From positions 1,733,573 through 1,797,572 of the forward strand of contig CAWDWR010000001.1 of NCBI GenBank assembly GCA_963806085.1: a stretch of 64,000 bases of DNA, given 5' to 3'. Under the pieces are notes generated by a model that saw nothing but the letters and a program-made list of their open reading frames with translations, was not told the origin of the DNA and did no database searches. The DNA comes from an uncultured Acidobacteriota bacterium (GTDB taxonomy: Bacteria > Acidobacteriota > Vicinamibacteria > Vicinamibacterales > JAKQTR01). How positions within the stretch are numbered: position 1 is the stretch's first letter; every line of letters starts with the position of its first letter. Both the position numbers and the translations under genes were made by a program. Positions 40,937 through 47,446 of the stretch are shown in pieces.

Positions 40937-42949
40937 ATGCCTGCGCTGCGGACGCTCCGCACCGTCTGCCCACGCAACTGCTACTGCACGTGCGGCATGC
41001 TCGTCACCCTCGACGAGGCCAACCGCATCGTTTCGATTGAAGGCGATCCCGAGAACCCGGCAACCGGCGGCCATGTCTGCGTGAAGGGGCTCTCGTACGC
41101 CCGCCGCGTCGCCTCAGCCAATCGCCTGCTGAGGCCGCTGCGGCGGAGGGCAACCGGCGTCGGCTTTGAGCCGATCGCCTGGCACGACGCGGTCGGCGAG
41201 ATCTGCGACCGGCTCACGCAGGTGCGGGAGCGGTATGGTCCCGAAGCGGCGCTCTACTACGAAGGGTCAGGGTCGCACGGGGCCCTCGGCGGGTTGGCAA
41301 TGGCCTTCTGGCGCCAGTTCGGCGGGTGTACCACCACCTTTGGCGACCTGTGCTGGCCGGCAGGCCTCGAAGCGACGCGACTGACCTACGGCGACAACCG
41401 CCACAACCATCCGACCCAGACGAGGCAGAGCCGGGTGATCCTGCTGTGGGGCCACAATCCCGCTGAAACGAACGTCCACCAGTGGCGGTTGATCCTCGAT
41501 GCCCAGGCGCAGGGCGCGCGCGTCATCGCGATCGACCCGCGGCAGACCGACTCCACCGACGCCGCGGACGTCCATCTGCAGCCCAGGCCCGGCACGGACG
41601 CGGCCCTGGCACTCGGCATCGCCAGGCTGATCGTCGACGAAGGCTTCCATGACGCGGCCTTCCTCGACACGAACGCGCACGGGTTCGAAGAGTATCGCCG
41701 CCGGCTGGAGGAGTTTCCCCTCGATCGCACGGCGTCGATTACCGGGCTCGATCCGGAGGACGTTCGCGCGCTGGCCATCGCGTACGCCCGCACGAAGCCG
41801 GCGCTGCTCATCGCGGGCTTCGGGCTCCAGCGCCACTCGCGCGCCGGCCAGACTATGCGGGCCGTCGCGCTGCTGCCCGCGCTGACCGGGAACGTCGGGC
41901 TCGCGGGCGGAGGATGGCAGTACGCGAATCTCGCCAGTCACTGCCTCCGTCCCCTGCCTCTGCCGCCCGAACCGGCCGCGTCGCGATCGATTCCCGTGTC
42001 GCAGGTCGCCAGGCACCTCGAGTCGATCGATGCCCCCCCGATCCGCGCCGCCTGGATCGAGCGGGGAAACCCGGCCGTGCAGAACCCGGCGGCACACCGC
42101 CTGCGCGACGCCCTCGCGCGCCTCGATCTCGTCGTCGTGGTCGATCAGTTCATGACGCCGACCGCCGAACTCGCCCACTACGTCCTTCCCGCGAAGTCCC
42201 TGTTCGAGGAGGAGGATCTCGTCACCGCCTACTGGCATCCGTACCTGCAGTGGCGCGCGAAGATCCTCGACCCTCCAGGCAACGTGCGGCCCGAGACGGA
42301 GATCTGGCGGGCGATGTGCGCCCGCATCGGCGCCGACACGAGCTGGTTCCCGACCGACCGCGAGGCGTTTCTCCAGGCGCTGCTGCCGGATGGGTGCACG
42401 GGCGTGCTGAGCGATCTGAAGGCCCGGCCGCTCGACCTGTCGGGCAACGGGGATGTGGCGTTCGCAGACGGGCGCTTCCCGACGCCCTCCGGCAAGGTGG
42501 AATTCGCCTCGGACGCCGCGGCCGGGCGATGGGGCGTCGATCGGGTGCCGGACTACCTGCCGCTTGACGAAGGCGCGGCGTCCCCGGCGCACGAGCGGTT
42601 CCCGCTGCAGTTGCTCTCCTGCAAGACGCGCGATCGCATCCACTCGCAGTTCGGCAATCTCGACTGGATCCAGGAGATCGAACGGCCCCACGTGCTCGAC
42701 ATCCATCCGGACGATGCAAAGGCGAGGGGCCTCGGTGATGGCAGCGGGGCGGTGGCATGGAACGACCGGGGCCGGATCGAATTGGCGGTCCGGGTCACGC
42801 CCGGCATCCGTCCGGGTGTCGTGCACATCCTTGAGGGCTGGTGCCACGAGGGCGACCCCGACGTGAACGCCCTGACGGCCGAAGGCATGACCGACATGAA
42901 CCACGGCGCCACGTTCTACGAGTGCCTCGTGGAGGTGGCGCGGGCATGA
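40937..42949 (+). CDS. Molybdopterin/tungstopterin (bis-PGD, MopB family) oxidoreductase catalytic subunit, no Tat signal
   Basis: 670-aa ORF. The N-terminal 4Fe-4S motif CPRNCYCTCG...C starts at residue 11, so there is no room for a signal peptide. Typical motifs are LWGHNPAETN, IAIDPR..., and a C-terminal beta-barrel HPDDA...G. Confidence 0.9.
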   Translation: MPALRTLRTVCPRNCYCTCGMLVTLDEANRIVSIEGDPENPATGGHVCVKGLSYARRVASANRLLRPLRRRATGVGFEPIAWHDAVGEICDRLTQVRERYGPEAALYYEGSGSHGALGGLAMAFWRQFGGCTTTFGDLCWPAGLEATRLTYGDNRHNHPTQTRQSRVILLWGHNPAETNVHQWRLILDAQAQGARVIAIDPRQTDSTDAADVHLQPRPGTDAALALGIARLIVDEGFHDAAFLDTNAHGFEEYRRRLEEFPLDRTASITGLDPEDVRALAIAYARTKPALLIAGFGLQRHSRAGQTMRAVALLPALTGNVGLAGGGWQYANLASHCLRPLPLPPEPAASRSIPVSQVARHLESIDAPPIRAAWIERGNPAVQNPAAHRLRDALARLDLVVVVDQFMTPTAELAHYVLPAKSLFEEEDLVTAYWHPYLQWRAKILDPPGNVRPETEIWRAMCARIGADTSWFPTDREAFLQALLPDGCTGVLSDLKARPLDLSGNGDVAFADGRFPTPSGKVEFASDAAAGRWGVDRVPDYLPLDEGAASPAHERFPLQLLSCKTRDRIHSQFGNLDWIQEIERPHVLDIHPDDAKARGLGDGSGAVAWNDRGRIELAVRVTPGIRPGVVHILEGWCHEGDPDVNALTAEGMTDMNHGATFYECLVEVARA

Positions 42950-43527
42950 GTGGCGCTGGTTTCCTGCTCGATCTGCACCGCTGCGTCGGATGCGGCGCGT
43001 GCGTCCTCGCGTGCCGGGTTGAGAACGGGCGCGCGGAGACCGCTGCGTGGCGGCGTGTGCTTCCCCTCAACCTGCGGCGGCATCCGGCGGGTCCCACCTA
43101 TTTCCTCTCGGTCGCCTGCCACCATTGTGAAGAGCCGGCGTGCCTGAAAGGCTGCCCCTCGAGCGCCTACGAGAAACGCTCCGATGGCATCGTCATCCAT
43201 CGCGAGGAGCTGTGCCTCGGGTGCCGGTACTGCGAGATGACATGCCCGTTCGGCACGCCGCGGTACGACGCCGCGACGGGCGTGATGTCGAAGTGCCACC
43301 TCTGCGCGCATCGGGTAGATGCCGGCCGGCCGCCGGCCTGTGTCGCGGCATGTCCGACCGCGGCGCTGCAGTTCGTGCCTCAAGGTGCGCCTCCAGACGG
43401 TACGCGGCGACTCGTGCCAGGATTCATCGACCCTGCACCGTGCCGGCCCGCGCTCTGGTTCGTGCCGCCCTCGGGCTCGCGGCGGGCGGGACTATTCAGG
43501 TCACTCGAGGAGACGTTGAAGAAGTGA
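42946..43527 (+). CDS. 4Fe-4S dicluster electron-transfer subunit (DmsB-like)
   Basis: Met36 of ORF 42841..43527, with an ATGA overlap onto the A subunit. Cys clusters are CVGCGACVLAC, CHHCEEPAC, CLGCRYCEMTCP and CHLC...C..ACP. Confidence 0.9.
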   Translation: MSGAGFLLDLHRCVGCGACVLACRVENGRAETAAWRRVLPLNLRRHPAGPTYFLSVACHHCEEPACLKGCPSSAYEKRSDGIVIHREELCLGCRYCEMTCPFGTPRYDAATGVMSKCHLCAHRVDAGRPPACVAACPTAALQFVPQGAPPDGTRRLVPGFIDPAPCRPALWFVPPSGSRRAGLFRSLEETLKK

Positions 43528-44354
43528 GTGATCGCACGGGGCATCGTTCGCTCGTTGCCTTCACCACCCTCGCCATCGCGGGCGCGGGACTCGTGGCGGC
43601 GTCCGCGTATTTCGAACTCGTCCACGGCCTGGGCGCGGCACGAACCATCGCCGCCGGGGCCGCCCTGCTTGCGGCCGGCCTGTTCGTCTCATTCGCGCAC
43701 CTGGGTCAGAAGCAGCGAGCCCTGCTCGCCACGCGTGGCCTGGGGCGCAGCGCGCTCAGCAACGAGGCGCTCGTCGCCGGGCTGGCGCTCGCTGGGGCGG
43801 TGGTTGCGGCGGGCGTCGGCCTGTTAGCGGGCGTGCCGTCGGCGGTCGCCACGGGGGCGGCCGGGATGCTCAATGTCGCGCTGCTGGTGTCGATCGGTCT
43901 CGTCTATCGGATCCGGGGCCAGTGCACCTGGCTGGGCTTTGCGGTCGTCACGCCTCTCACGGCGGGCCTGGCCTTCGGCGCCATCGCGGTGCAATCGGCG
44001 GCCGCCGAAGACGGCGTCTTCCAGGTCACGCTGCTCGTCATCGCTATTGACGCACTCCTGTTCTCCCAACGCTGGCGGGAAGTCGTCAGCATTCCGTTCT
44101 CCGAGGCCATGCTGGCGGACAGGTGGCACGTCAGGCGCACGCAGCTGCTGGCGGCGCGGTTCTTCCTGCTCGACGCCGTGCCGTTCATCCTGCTCGCCGT
44201 CTCGCCCACGCCGCTGGCGGTGCCGGCAGCCGCTGCGGGCCTGTTCCTCGATCGGTTCGGCTTCTACGCCCTCGCCCTTCAGCACACGACGGAGCAGGAA
44301 GTCGCCGGCGTCGAGGCGCGGCTCGTCGTCCCGGACCACCCGCCGGCAGACTGA
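43524..44354 (+). CDS. DmsC-like membrane anchor subunit
   Basis: GTG start overlapping the B-subunit stop (GTGA), in frame with ORF 43140..44354. About 8 hydrophobic helices. The N-terminal GHRSLVAFTTLAIAGAG resembles the DmsC HEWPLxxFT start. Confidence 0.75.
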   Translation: MSDRTGHRSLVAFTTLAIAGAGLVAASAYFELVHGLGAARTIAAGAALLAAGLFVSFAHLGQKQRALLATRGLGRSALSNEALVAGLALAGAVVAAGVGLLAGVPSAVATGAAGMLNVALLVSIGLVYRIRGQCTWLGFAVVTPLTAGLAFGAIAVQSAAAEDGVFQVTLLVIAIDALLFSQRWREVVSIPFSEAMLADRWHVRRTQLLAARFFLLDAVPFILLAVSPTPLAVPAAAAGLFLDRFGFYALALQHTTEQEVAGVEARLVVPDHPPAD

Positions 44355-44449: not shown

Positions 44450-46030
44450 ATGAACCGCGTGCTCGCAGGATTGTCGATCGTCGCGTGTGTCGGGACGGCG
44501 CAGGCGCTGACAGCAGGCGCCGGCAGCCCGCAGGCGGCGGCCCACCAGGCCGTCCTGAGGCTGGCCACGACGACCAGTACCGTGGACACCGGGCTCTTCA
44601 AGGCGATCCTCCCCGCATTCGAATCGCAGTGCGGCTGCCGCGTGGATGTCGTGGCGGTCGGCACGGGGCAGGCCCTCGAACTCGGCCGGCGCGGCGACGC
44701 GGACGTCCTCCTCGTCCACGCGCCTGAACAGGAATCGGCCTTCATGAAGGAAGGCCACGCGGTGCGACGCGACGACGTCATGTATAACGACTTCGTCATC
44801 GTCGGCCCGGCAGCCGACCCGGCGGGTGTCGCGAAGGTCTCGATGGCAAAGGACGCCTTCCAGAGTATTCAGGCCGCCTCCGCCGCGTTCGCGAGCCGCG
44901 GCGACAGGTCGGGGACGCACACGAAGGAACTGGCGTTGTGGAAGGCCGCCGGCATCACGCCGGCTGCGGGCGCGCCATGGTATCTCTCGGTTGGCCAGGG
45001 CATGGGCGAGACGCTGACGTTCGCCAATGAACGCCGCGCCTATGTCTTGACCGACCGCGCCACGTGGACGTCGATGAAGGAGCGCCTGCCGAACCTGCGC
45101 CAGGTCTTCGGCGGAGCCTCAGCCGACACGAATCCGGATCGCGACCTCCGCAACCAGTACGGCGTCATCGTGATCGACAAGGCGCGGCACGCCGGTGTGA
45201 ACACGGCGCTTGCCCTCCGATTCGCCGACTGGCTGGTGTCGAAGCCGACGCAGCAGCGGATCGGCGCGTTCGGCCGCGACGGCGCCGGGCACTCGCTCTT
45301 CTACCCGGACTCCGACGAGTTCAAGGCCACGGACCAGATCCGGGTCGTGATCGGAGCGAAGACACGCACCTTCACGCTGGACGACCTCCGGAAGGCCAGG
45401 CGGGCGACGCTGGCGGGCGTCGAACACATCGGCGTGAAGAAGGGTGCCCTCGGCAAGTACACGTGGGTGGGGGCGTCCCTGAAAGACGTCCTGCTGTCGG
45501 TCGACTCCGAGCTTGCCGCTCCGTCCCGGTCGGCCTCGACCATCGACGTGATCAGCAGCGACGGCTGGGTGGCCAGCCTGACGTGGCACGAACTGTTCGG
45601 CCAGATCAGCCGCGGTGAAGGCCTCTATCTGGCAAAGGGCTGCAATGAATGTCACGGGCTGCGCGCGGAAGGCACCAGCCCCGAGGGCAAGCGGCCGGCG
45701 CCGAAGCTGATGGGGCAGGCGTTCCCGGTGGCTGACACCACGTCGATGATCCGGACGGGAACGGGTCAGCACCAGGGCATCTCGGCGTACACCGAGGCCA
45801 GGCTTTCGGACGCCGACCTGGCGGCCATCCTCGGTTGGCTCGCGAAACCGGCACGCACCGGCAGCGCCGACGTGTTTGTCGTGCCCGAGGCGCGGCGGGC
45901 GATCGTGCTGGCCTACGAGCGCGACGGCAAGCCGATGACCGGACGCGATGGCCTGATCCAACTGGTGGTCGGCGCGGACGAGTTCGCGTCCAGGTATTCG
46001 CACTGGGTGTCTGAAATCCGCGTCCGCTAG
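44450..46030 (+). CDS. tupA: Tungstate ABC transporter substrate-binding lipoprotein TupA fused to a sulfite-oxidase-fold-like domain with an inserted c-type cytochrome module
   Basis: Met110 of ORF 44123..46030 (GGAGGGA upstream). Lipobox IVAC. The TupA core reads TTTSTVDTGLFKAILPAFE...AVGTGQALELGRRGDADVLLVHAP...MYNDFVIVGP. The C-terminal extension carries a CNECHG heme-binding site. Confidence 0.85.
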   Translation: MNRVLAGLSIVACVGTAQALTAGAGSPQAAAHQAVLRLATTTSTVDTGLFKAILPAFESQCGCRVDVVAVGTGQALELGRRGDADVLLVHAPEQESAFMKEGHAVRRDDVMYNDFVIVGPAADPAGVAKVSMAKDAFQSIQAASAAFASRGDRSGTHTKELALWKAAGITPAAGAPWYLSVGQGMGETLTFANERRAYVLTDRATWTSMKERLPNLRQVFGGASADTNPDRDLRNQYGVIVIDKARHAGVNTALALRFADWLVSKPTQQRIGAFGRDGAGHSLFYPDSDEFKATDQIRVVIGAKTRTFTLDDLRKARRATLAGVEHIGVKKGALGKYTWVGASLKDVLLSVDSELAAPSRSASTIDVISSDGWVASLTWHELFGQISRGEGLYLAKGCNECHGLRAEGTSPEGKRPAPKLMGQAFPVADTTSMIRTGTGQHQGISAYTEARLSDADLAAILGWLAKPARTGSADVFVVPEARRAIVLAYERDGKPMTGRDGLIQLVVGADEFASRYSHWVSEIRVR

Positions 46031-46106
46031 ACCGGGGGGTCTGGACGAGAGGTCCGCCATCGACAGCATCCTGCGCGCGCTCGGCGATCCGGCCCTGCTG
46101 GCGATC

Positions 46107-46724
46107 GTGTCGCTCACGTTCCAGGTGACCGGACTCGCGCTCGTGATCGCCACCGTGATCGGCGTGCCTGTCGGTGCCCTGGTCGGCCTGACGCGTTTCC
46201 CCGGCAAGCAACTCGTCACGCTCGCGTTGTACACCGGCATGGGCCTGCCGCCCGTTGTCGTCGGCCTCGTGGTCTACATGCTGCTGTCGCGCAGCGGCCC
46301 CGTCGGGTCGATGGGCTGGCTCTTCACACCGCCGGCAATGGTCGTCGCGCAGACGATCATCGCGTTCCCGCTCGTCGCCGCGTTGACGATGAGCGCGGTG
46401 GAAGGGGTCGATCCGGACTTGCGCCTGCAGGTGCGGGCCCTTGGAGCCACGCGCTGGCAGACCGGCTGTACCGTCCTGCGCGAGGCCCGGATTGGCCTGA
46501 CAGCGGCCATCGTCGCCGCCTTCGGCGGGATCATCTCCGAGGTTGGCGCGGTGATGCTGGTGGGCGGCAACATCGAAGGCCAGACGCGCGTGCTCACGAC
46601 GGCCATCGTGCTCTCGACGCGTCAGGGCGACTTCGCGCTGGCCATGGCGCTCGGCATCGTGCTGCTGGCGCTCGCGCTCGGCGCCAACGCGGTGCTACTG
46701 CAGTTGCAGGGACGGGCGAAATGA
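46107..46724 (+). CDS. tupB: Tungstate ABC transporter permease
   Basis: 205-aa ORF (GTG start) of the MetI/BPD-type permease family. The homologous N-terminal sequence (IDSILRALGDPALLAI) continues upstream without a canonical start codon, so the true start may be ATC 46059. Confidence 0.85.
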   Translation: MSLTFQVTGLALVIATVIGVPVGALVGLTRFPGKQLVTLALYTGMGLPPVVVGLVVYMLLSRSGPVGSMGWLFTPPAMVVAQTIIAFPLVAALTMSAVEGVDPDLRLQVRALGATRWQTGCTVLREARIGLTAAIVAAFGGIISEVGAVMLVGGNIEGQTRVLTTAIVLSTRQGDFALAMALGIVLLALALGANAVLLQLQGRAK

Positions 46725-47446
46725 CCCCGCAGCCGCCCGCCTTCGAACTCGCCGGCGTCCGCCACAGGTATGGCGCGAGAACCGTGCTGAGCATCCCCCA
46801 CCTCTCCATCCACAGGGGCGAGACCCTGGGCATCATCGGCCCGAGCGGTGCCGGCAAGAGCACGTTGTTGCGGCTGCTCCAGGGACTCGAGCGGCCGGCC
46901 GAGGGGACCATCAACATCGACGGCGAGCCCATGCCCGATCCGCTGCCGCTGGCGCTTGCCCGCCGTGTCACGACGGTGTTCCAGCGGCCGCTGATGCTCG
47001 ACCGGCGCGTCCGCGACAACGTGCTGTTCGGGCTCCAGGTGCGCGGACGGAAGGACCGCGCGCCGGCCGGTCCTCTGCTCGAACGCCTGGGCCTCACGCA
47101 CCTGGCAGACGCGCAGGCCCGGCGCCTGTCCGGCGGCGAGGCTCAACGCGTCGCGCTCGCCCGCGCGCTGGCCATCGAGCCCGATGTCCTGCTGCTCGAC
47201 GAGCCCGCGGCGAACCTCGACCCGGCGAACGTCGCCCGCGTCGAGGCGCTCATCCGCGACGCGCAGGCGCGCGGCACCACGATCGTACTCGTCACGCACA
47301 ATACGCACGAGGCCCGCCGCCTGGCGCACCGGACGCTGCTGCTGATTGAAGGGGCTGTCGTCGAGACAGGGCCGACCGTGGCGTTCTTCGAGTCGCCGGC
47401 AGAAGCCCGGACGCGGGCCTTCCTCGCCGGCGAATTGGTGTACTAG
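46721..47446 (+). CDS. tupC: Tungstate ABC transporter ATP-binding protein
   Basis: 241-aa ORF with Walker A GPSGAGKST, signature LSGGEAQR and Walker B LLLDEP. It overlaps tupB by 4 nt. Confidence 0.9.
   Translation: MTPQPPAFELAGVRHRYGARTVLSIPHLSIHRGETLGIIGPSGAGKSTLLRLLQGLERPAEGTINIDGEPMPDPLPLALARRVTTVFQRPLMLDRRVRDNVLFGLQVRGRKDRAPAGPLLERLGLTHLADAQARRLSGGEAQRVALARALAIEPDVLLLDEPAANLDPANVARVEALIRDAQARGTTIVLVTHNTHEARRLAHRTLLLIEGAVVETGPTVAFFESPAEARTRAFLAGELVY

Follow-up and report, generated by a model that had tools for sequence, protein, structure and literature searches.

This study concerns a single gene at positions 44450-46030 (+) of a 64,000-nt stretch of contig CAWDWR010000001.1, from an uncultured bacterium of the Acidobacteriota; we refer to the whole of that stretch as the window. 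The gene forms one unbroken open reading frame (ORF) of 526 amino acids that ends in TAG, with GGAG standing 6 nt 5' of its ATG. A longer, GTG-started frame from 44123 was rejected, as it overlaps the gene before it and is not needed. Read from the N-terminus, the encoded protein comprises a signal peptide, a TupA-type tungstate-binding domain and a C-terminal module in which a cytochrome c domain interrupts a fold of the sulfite oxidase (SUOX) type. Genes for the permease and the ATPase of a tungstate importer lie downstream, and a DmsABC-like trio lies upstream.

We started with the N-terminal half. The TupA-type tungstate-binding domain occupies residues 30-290 (44537..45319, +) and is supported by matches in Pfam, NCBIfam and the PDB: Pfam PBP_like_2 (PF12849) covers residues 30-265 (1.8e-41), the NCBIfam TupA model (NF041772) covers residues 30-290 with 200.6 bits, and the TupA structures 3lr1 and 5my5 are matched with E values of 5.9e-65 (residues 35-263) and 2.8e-52. 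A preliminary description of this DNA had seen a clear TupA-type domain here, and these searches bear it out. Family membership is thus clear; the NCBIfam score does not reach the equivalog cut-off of 400, and strict equivalence and specificity for tungstate over molybdate are putative. The motif TTTS (T40, T41, T42 and S43; 44567-44578), which we take to be the anion-binding motif of TupA, is invariant in 53 sequences and aligns with the TTTS of 3lr1. We conclude that the gene product serves a TupABC tungstate importer as its substrate-binding protein. It is the sole TupA found in the genome assembly, whose completeness, judged from marker genes, is ~74%.

Lobe I of the TupA domain also carries a CGC motif (C61 and C63; 44630..44638, +) that is confined to the fused acidobacterial clade. 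C63 is present in 52 and C61 in 45 of 53 fused homologues, and the C-x-C pattern is missing from the TupAs of the split or separate forms, from the fused form of Thermoflexales and from the TupAs in the PDB. It would constitute a conserved periplasmic thiol or disulfide beside a heme module.

The fold of the C-terminal module was predicted with AlphaFold2 for residues 285-526, using 60 homologues; the model has a predicted local distance difference test score (pLDDT) of 90.9 and a predicted template modelling score (pTM) of 0.89. VIA-align superposed it on chicken sulfite oxidase (3hbg) with a Z score of 16.0 over 142 residues and a root-mean-square deviation (rmsd) of 2.5 Å, and on SorA, SoxC, plant sulfite oxidase and YedY with Z scores of 11-15. 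The periplasmic protein PruR was matched at Z 15.7 by its structure 7kom (123 of 134 residues, rmsd 2.1 Å) and at Z 13.8-14.5 by 7kp2, 7kou and 7rkb. By Foldseek and VIA-align alike, some 140 residues contributed by the two ends of the model match the molybdenum cofactor (Moco) domain of sulfite oxidases. At the level of sequence, Pfam Oxidored_molyb covers residues 314-383 only, with 21.4 bits (17.4 bits in the genome scan), and does not reach its cut-off of 24. Sequence-only searches of the PDB with the module or its two SUOX halves yielded SUOX matches that fell short of significance (E 0.09 and 1.3) and none to PruR; similarly, the small relative P0207, searched by sequence against the PDB, matched SorA and not PruR.

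The N-terminal part of this fold (residues 295-386; 45332..45607, +) is Cys-less and PruR-like by fold search, Pfam and profile search, and contains the motifs SSDGW (45554-45568, +) and WHELF (45584-45598, +). The C-terminal part (residues 469-526; 45854..46030, +) contains GLIQ and RYSHWV, runs to the TAG stop and aligns to LAYEMNG...HGFPLRVVVPG...RSVKW of plant sulfite oxidase. Between the two stands a monoheme class-I cytochrome c domain at residues 387-468 (45608..45853, +), recognised by Pfam, VIA-align and alignment. Pfam Cytochrome_CBB3 (PF13442) matches residues 385-464 with 29.4 bits, over its cut-off of 27, and VIA-align places model residues 103-184 only on cytochromes c551, c552, c553 and the PCMH cytochrome with Z scores of 7-8. 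Since the SUOX match spans model residues 1-242 and the cytochrome match residues 103-184, the cytochrome is an insertion in one SUOX-fold domain. It sits between WHELF and AIVLAYERDG, in the loop after the W-x-E-L-F helix; at the same point, P0207 has a 6-residue loop (...SWGEIYNHLSGDKVILAYERDG...) and no insertion. The preliminary description had read this region as a SUOX-like domain interrupted by a class-I cytochrome c, after which the fold resumes, and both the profile hidden Markov model match and the AlphaFold2 model with its fold searches support that reading.

Next, we asked which residues might ligate the heme. The attachment motif, CXXCH within KGCNECHG (45635-45658, +), is invariant, reading CNECH in all 60 sequences. 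The position that usually holds the Met ligand, aligned to Met61 of cytochrome c551, is occupied here by Y447 (45788-45790, +); it is Tyr in 55 and Phe in 5 of the 60 homologues, and none of the alignment columns holds a conserved Met in these 60 sequences. All 60 sequences, those of the split and stand-alone forms among them, have a His (H441; 45770-45772, +) six residues upstream of it. Because H441 is invariant, the Met position holds Tyr or Phe and a Met column is lacking, H441 is the likely sixth ligand, and His/His ligation by H402 and H441 would be the likeliest heme arrangement. A five-coordinate heme, or one with an exchangeable ligand, is a possible alternative. Both His/His and exchangeable-ligand arrangements are typical of low-potential or sensing hemes and less so of ordinary electron shuttles. 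Two other candidates were ruled out: Tyr447, as Phe takes its place in five homologues, and C63 as a general ligand, as it is missing in the stand-alone, split and Thermoflexales-fusion forms.

The resemblance to sulfite oxidase does not extend to its cofactor. The only cysteines in residues 285-526 are C398 and C401 of the CXXCH. When P0207 is used as the bridge, SorA's Mo-ligand Cys falls at the variable H326, in a hairpin 14 residues shorter than that of SorA. The mode of export is telling as well. Covalent heme c needs export in an unfolded state, and periplasmic Moco enzymes are exported folded, with the cofactor inside. The fusion protein begins with the Sec-type signal peptide MNRVLAGLSIVACVGTAQA (44450..44506, +), assigned from its own sequence and from homologues with Sec signals. 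No twin-arginine motif was found in the N-terminus (MNRVLAGLSIVAC...), the homologues' signals are Sec-type too, and the protein is accordingly predicted to be exported via the Sec pathway. Lacking the Mo-ligand Cys, with a shortened hairpin and Sec-type export, the SUOX-like part is a cofactor-less SUOX fold of the PruR type and not a molybdoenzyme. The preliminary description had called this region a molybdopterin-oxidoreductase domain of the SUOX/YedY fold; it was right about the fold, and the functional sense of the name has to be given up. Its label for the whole protein, a TupA tungstate-binding lipoprotein, likewise holds for TupA and is doubtful for the lipoprotein: IVAC (residues 10-13; 44477-44488) fits a lipobox but would leave a signal of just 12 residues, AQA|L would also suit signal peptidase I, and the homologues mostly have ordinary Sec signals without a lipobox, which only a few possess.

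A fusion of this kind could arise from two genes joined by an error of sequencing or assembly, and some database relatives are indeed visibly frameshifted (P0085, P0189 and P0190). To such an artefact we nevertheless assign practically no probability, and we regard it as refuted. When the module served as query in a word-indexed search, 130 clusters matched, of which 120 were listed; most of those listed are ~510-560 amino acids long and carry PF12849 and/or PF13531 together with the cytochrome and/or Oxidored_molyb, and module identity is 48-97% among the matches listed. The fused, colinear order is found in 25 of 30 species-genome loci, a number that includes 2 frameshifted assemblies; one further locus starts inside the gene. 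The loci come mostly from Vicinamibacterales and other Acidobacteriota, with one each from metagenome-assembled genomes (MAGs) of Thermoflexales, KSB1, Aminicenantes and Ozemobacteraceae; the same continuous frame is shared by homologue clusters and the 25 loci across several phyla. Independently, an unrelated soil run contains a 1730-nt contig that covers 45221-46200, the junction included, with 23 substitutions and without a gap. The architecture thus exists in other genomes (at least 120 clusters), and the fusion is genuine, with neither a missed stop nor an indel behind it. It is also rare: among 401 sampled genomes of the phylum, TupA was found in 70 and the module in 3. Frameshifted versions of the fusion gene occur at loci L035, L042 and L050 too, in long-read assemblies or in gene calls that stray into other frames, and automated annotation of this family is therefore often truncated or chimeric.

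The junction between the two halves (LFYPDSDEFKATDQIRVV; 45296..45349, +) is conserved and ordered, as seen in the model, the alignment and the bridging contig. In a model of the full-length protein (pLDDT 89, pTM 0.82), residues 270-300 have pLDDT values above 90, and L283, F284, Y285, P286, S288, K292 and V299 are nearly invariant. For these two reasons, the TupA domain and the module appear to be held in a fixed arrangement, as opposed to being joined by a flexible tether.

We also found the module outside this fusion. At two loci, from an Ozemobacteraceae MAG (L048, 30-1544) and an unclassified MAG (L049, 7134-8684), the module is encoded by a gene of its own, which comes after tupA and specifies a second signal peptide. 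In KSB1 (L038), the genes for a ModA-type binding protein and a permease have a stand-alone module ~3 kb upstream of them, on the same strand; elsewhere, the module lies 6 kb from tupABC (L044) or in the vicinity of genes for a formate dehydrogenase-like protein and a formate transporter (L047), and P0107 and P0110 are stand-alone lipoprotein modules. An exhaustive profile search with the N-terminal SUOX-like part alone identified as nearest relatives small (165-200 amino acids), exported and mostly Cys-less Oxidored_molyb proteins. The same minimal domain, without the cytochrome, forms the C-terminus of ModA-type (SBP_bac_11) proteins in three clusters (P0192, P0271 and P0272). These ModA-type fusions are lipoproteins and are very rare. 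Since they bear the same domain without a cytochrome, its pairing with Mo/W oxyanion-binding proteins has arisen at least twice, and the heme is an addition in the TupA-linked branch. The profile search also turned up the domain fused to tetrapyrrole (corrin/porphyrin) methylases or in tandem arrays of 2-4 copies (P0194, P0197, P0191 and P0196).

Immediately downstream of the fusion gene are tupB, encoding the ABC permease (46107..46724, +; NCBIfam ABC_perm1 255 bits, TupB 154.7 bits), and tupC, encoding the ABC ATPase (46721..47446, +; Pfam ABC_tran 1.4e-33); across the 30 loci, tupB is conserved downstream in 23 and tupC in 22. Directly upstream is the DmsABC-like trio (40937-44354, +), assigned by Pfam and NCBIfam: a DmsA-like gene (40937-42949, +), a DmsB-like gene for a 4Fe-4S protein (42943-43527, +) and a weakly matching DmsC-like gene for a membrane protein (43530-44354, +). 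The trio has this position in 12 of the 30 loci and, on that basis, is probably an enzyme that uses the tungsten imported by TupABC. Its DmsA-like molybdopterin oxidoreductase begins right at the Fe4S4 Cys motif and has no Tat signal. The only conserved neighbours that the 30 loci revealed are tupB, tupC and the DmsABC-like genes. For heme attachment, the genome encodes cytochrome c maturation (Ccm) proteins, with two PF01578 matches above cut-off, one CcmF-like and one CcmC-like. Elsewhere in the genome, the one clear Oxidored_molyb match consists of two adjacent pieces (L051 and L052; G000 contig C1, 1520211-1520646, -), with open frames of 168 and 466 amino acids, which may reflect a frameshift or two reading frames.

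This setting raises the question of whether the module merely docks TupA, tethering it to TupB or to the DmsC-like anchor, with a heme that is structural. The rigid junction and the adjoining DmsABC-like genes would suit such a scaffold, as would the behaviour of PruR, which acts by contact with the periplasmic domain of a membrane protein (PMC11194511). We consider it very improbable. CXXCH, H441 and the polar pocket residues described below are invariant in 60 sequences, which speaks for chemistry and not for shape; furthermore, the DmsABC-like genes are missing from most loci, and stand-alone modules occur without any TupA.

An Rfam scan of the window gave 0 matches, no Moco riboswitch among them, no promoter-like site was found, and terminator-like sites did not exceed chance level. 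One 212-nt contig from a sediment metatranscriptome covers 45438-45649 with 5 differences, which is too little for claiming expression and may be DNA carry-over. Metagenomes of wetlands, soils and sediments, from 14 studies in all, contain close relatives of the stretch (0.28-0.45 of the words sampled); the end of coverage at ~44875 in run X1 is a gap in the data and not a finding.

What, then, might the cofactor-less cleft hold? S369, W379, E381, Q504, D510, R515, H518 and W519 show no variation wherever they were sampled; D371 and W373 are either invariant or conserved to at least 90%, depending on the alignment, and G501 and V520 are also invariant in the C-terminal part. PruR, a Cys-less SUOX-fold protein with a truncated Cys hairpin, binds reduced pterins in the periplasm; the pterin is sandwiched by Tyr104 and Trp160, and Asn102 is hydrogen-bonded to it (PMC11194511). 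D371, W373 and W519 seem equivalent to PruR Asn102, Tyr104 and Trp160: D371-G-W373 and W519 match the N-x-Y and W pattern by position arithmetic on aligned ranges, not by superposition. With an aromatic pair and a polar residue retained at PruR-like positions, a small planar ligand is most likely. The three invariant acids of the pocket (D371, E381 and D510) would make a second oxyanion site unlikely and would suit a ligand that bears amino or amide groups, for which a pterin is an example. They thus also bear on the roles put forward in the preliminary description, in which the protein could reduce, sense or chaperone the oxyanion, roles that are putative. Nor is the pocket simply that of PruR, as Q504 and H518 replace two basic residues typical of SUOX enzymes and of the small relatives.

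The acids bear on the idea of pre-uptake chemistry, in which the module would be an enzyme that turns environmental tungsten species (thiotungstates, organic or catecholate complexes, or reduced forms) into free tungstate, or one that discriminates tungsten from molybdenum by redox. Several observations are in line with it: the tight and repeated linkage to Mo/W binding proteins and transporters, the rigid junction to the binding domain, the heme, which implies electron transfer, and the occurrence of relatives of the stretch in wetland, soil and sediment metagenomes. We think it unlikely all the same, for D371, E381 and D510 are unfavourable to an oxyanion, the module has no catalytic metal site and no Mo-ligand Cys, the heme-less ModA fusions are without any redox centre, and no electron donor or acceptor is encoded nearby.

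The retained aromatic pair in a PruR-like fold also allows for pterin capture. Here the cleft would take up a pterin from outside the cell, or a compound that leads to the Mo/W cofactor or results from its decay, so that one protein gathers both building blocks of the cofactor while the heme keeps the pterin in the right redox state. This seems to us decidedly unlikely: only tupBC are encoded and no importer for such a compound, the window has no Moco riboswitch, and basic residues that could potentially hold a phosphate are replaced here. In addition, the cleft of PruR is reported to be too short for Moco (PMC11194511).

We therefore propose, with slightly less than even confidence, that the module is a periplasmic accessory, responsive to redox state or to a ligand, which couples the capture or delivery of tungstate to the redox state of the periplasm, and not a Mo-dependent oxidoreductase. 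In this scheme, the Ccm proteins encoded in the genome would attach the heme in the periplasm, and His/His ligation of its iron by H402 and H441 would give it either a low potential or a ligand open to exchange. The cleft, degenerate and devoid of Moco, would hold a small planar redox-active ligand, for example a free pterin, by means of W373, W519 and D371. This ligand would lie within electron-transfer reach of the heme, and the module would thereby couple the passage of tungstate from TupA to TupBC to periplasmic redox conditions. In its boldest form, which we find possible and rather doubtful, the proposal would make this the first ABC substrate-binding protein with a built-in covalent redox cofactor: the heme would act jointly with a pterin-type ligand, seated in what is a fossil Moco pocket, to gate tungstate uptake or prepare it chemically in response to the periplasmic redox state, and the protein would represent one branch of an undescribed class of PruR-like helpers recruited repeatedly (with TupA, with ModA and as stand-alone proteins) for W/Mo acquisition in several phyla.

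A number of points weigh against coupling to the periplasmic redox state. As the ModA fusions demonstrate, the domain can do without a heme, and clustering of all ORFs of the 30 loci revealed no conserved redox partner gene. The equivalences with PruR residues come from motif pattern and position arithmetic; the PW motif is absent, with the hairpin reading GVKKG, and no DcpA-type GGDEF/EAL partner is found among the neighbours in the 30 loci. Basic residues of SUOX proteins and of the small relatives are replaced, the R of G-x-x-R-L by Q504 and the K of VKW by H518, and the pocket chemistry therefore differs from both. How far the heme is from the cleft, which residue is the sixth ligand and how the module is oriented with respect to the tungstate cleft are all inferred. 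Finally, the description of the fused gene as the only TupA is provisional, given the incompleteness of the assembly.

What is new here is a TupA with a new accessory module, whose function we infer. To our knowledge, the current picture of W/Mo oxyanion uptake needs only a binding protein, a permease and an ATPase, and we know of no periplasmic redox or accessory step. The presence of the module on the sole TupA found, as a separate gene beside tupA and, in minimal form, in ModA fusions suggests such an accessory step in some soil and wetland bacteria. It would also extend the PruR class of cofactor-less SUOX-fold proteins beyond cyclic di-GMP signalling in Proteobacteria, and it offers a tractable protein, soluble and with a spectroscopically visible heme, for asking what PruR-like domains bind. 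More broadly, it bears on the supply of tungsten enzymes in the Acidobacteriota, which are abundant yet poorly studied.

Among known systems, TupA, PruR, enzymes of the SorAB type and class-I cytochromes each match one part of this protein, and none is the whole combination. Fusions of sulfite oxidase-family proteins to pfam13442 cytochromes have been reported (PMC6147048); our literature search found neither a fusion to a binding protein nor a PruR-like domain with a cytochrome insertion described. The TupAs of Geobacter sulfurreducens (3LR1) and Desulfovibrio alaskensis G20 (5MY5) align with the TupA domain end to end and have in common with it TTTS and GTGQA, an export signal and tupB-tupC directly downstream. 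Differences are the clade-specific CGC motif, the score of 200.6 against the 400-bit cut-off and, above all, the 240-amino-acid heme-bearing C-terminal module, which is in no solved or described TupA.

PruR (Agrobacterium Atu3496, 7kos/7kou; also 7kom, 7kp2 and 7rkb) is likewise a minimal SUOX fold of ~140 residues, with 122-123 residues aligned at Z 13.8-15.7 and an rmsd of 2.1-2.3 Å; both are Sec-exported periplasmic proteins that lack the Mo-ligand Cys and have a shortened hairpin, and aromatic residues of the module seem to occupy the pterin-stacking positions. In contrast to PruR, the module has no PW motif and no DcpA-type partner, contains an inserted cytochrome and is fused to the binding protein of a transporter; it has Trp in place of Tyr104 and Asp in place of Asn102, and its binding of a pterin is putative.

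SorAB (Starkeya novella, 2blf) and SoxCD (2xts) also combine a periplasmic SUOX fold with a class-I cytochrome c whose heme would lie beside the cleft. These enzymes are exported folded, comprise ~370-390 amino acids with a dimerisation domain, hold Moco via a Cys and have their cytochrome as a separate subunit, whereas here the Cys and the dimerisation domain are absent, export is of the Sec type and the cytochrome lies within the domain and is without a Met ligand. The nearest relatives of the SUOX part are the small exported Cys-less Oxidored_molyb proteins (such as P0202, P0207 and P0210) and the ModA fusions (P0271 and P0272), all uncharacterised, which have in common with it the core motifs (S/T)DG(Y/W)...W-x-E-(L/I)-(F/Y)...LAYE-x-(D/N)G. 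The small relatives end in R-H-V-K-W and the module in R-Y-S-H-W; both groups of relatives retain R and K where the fusion family has Q504 and H518, and both have a 6-residue loop where the fusion protein carries its cytochrome of ~85 residues.

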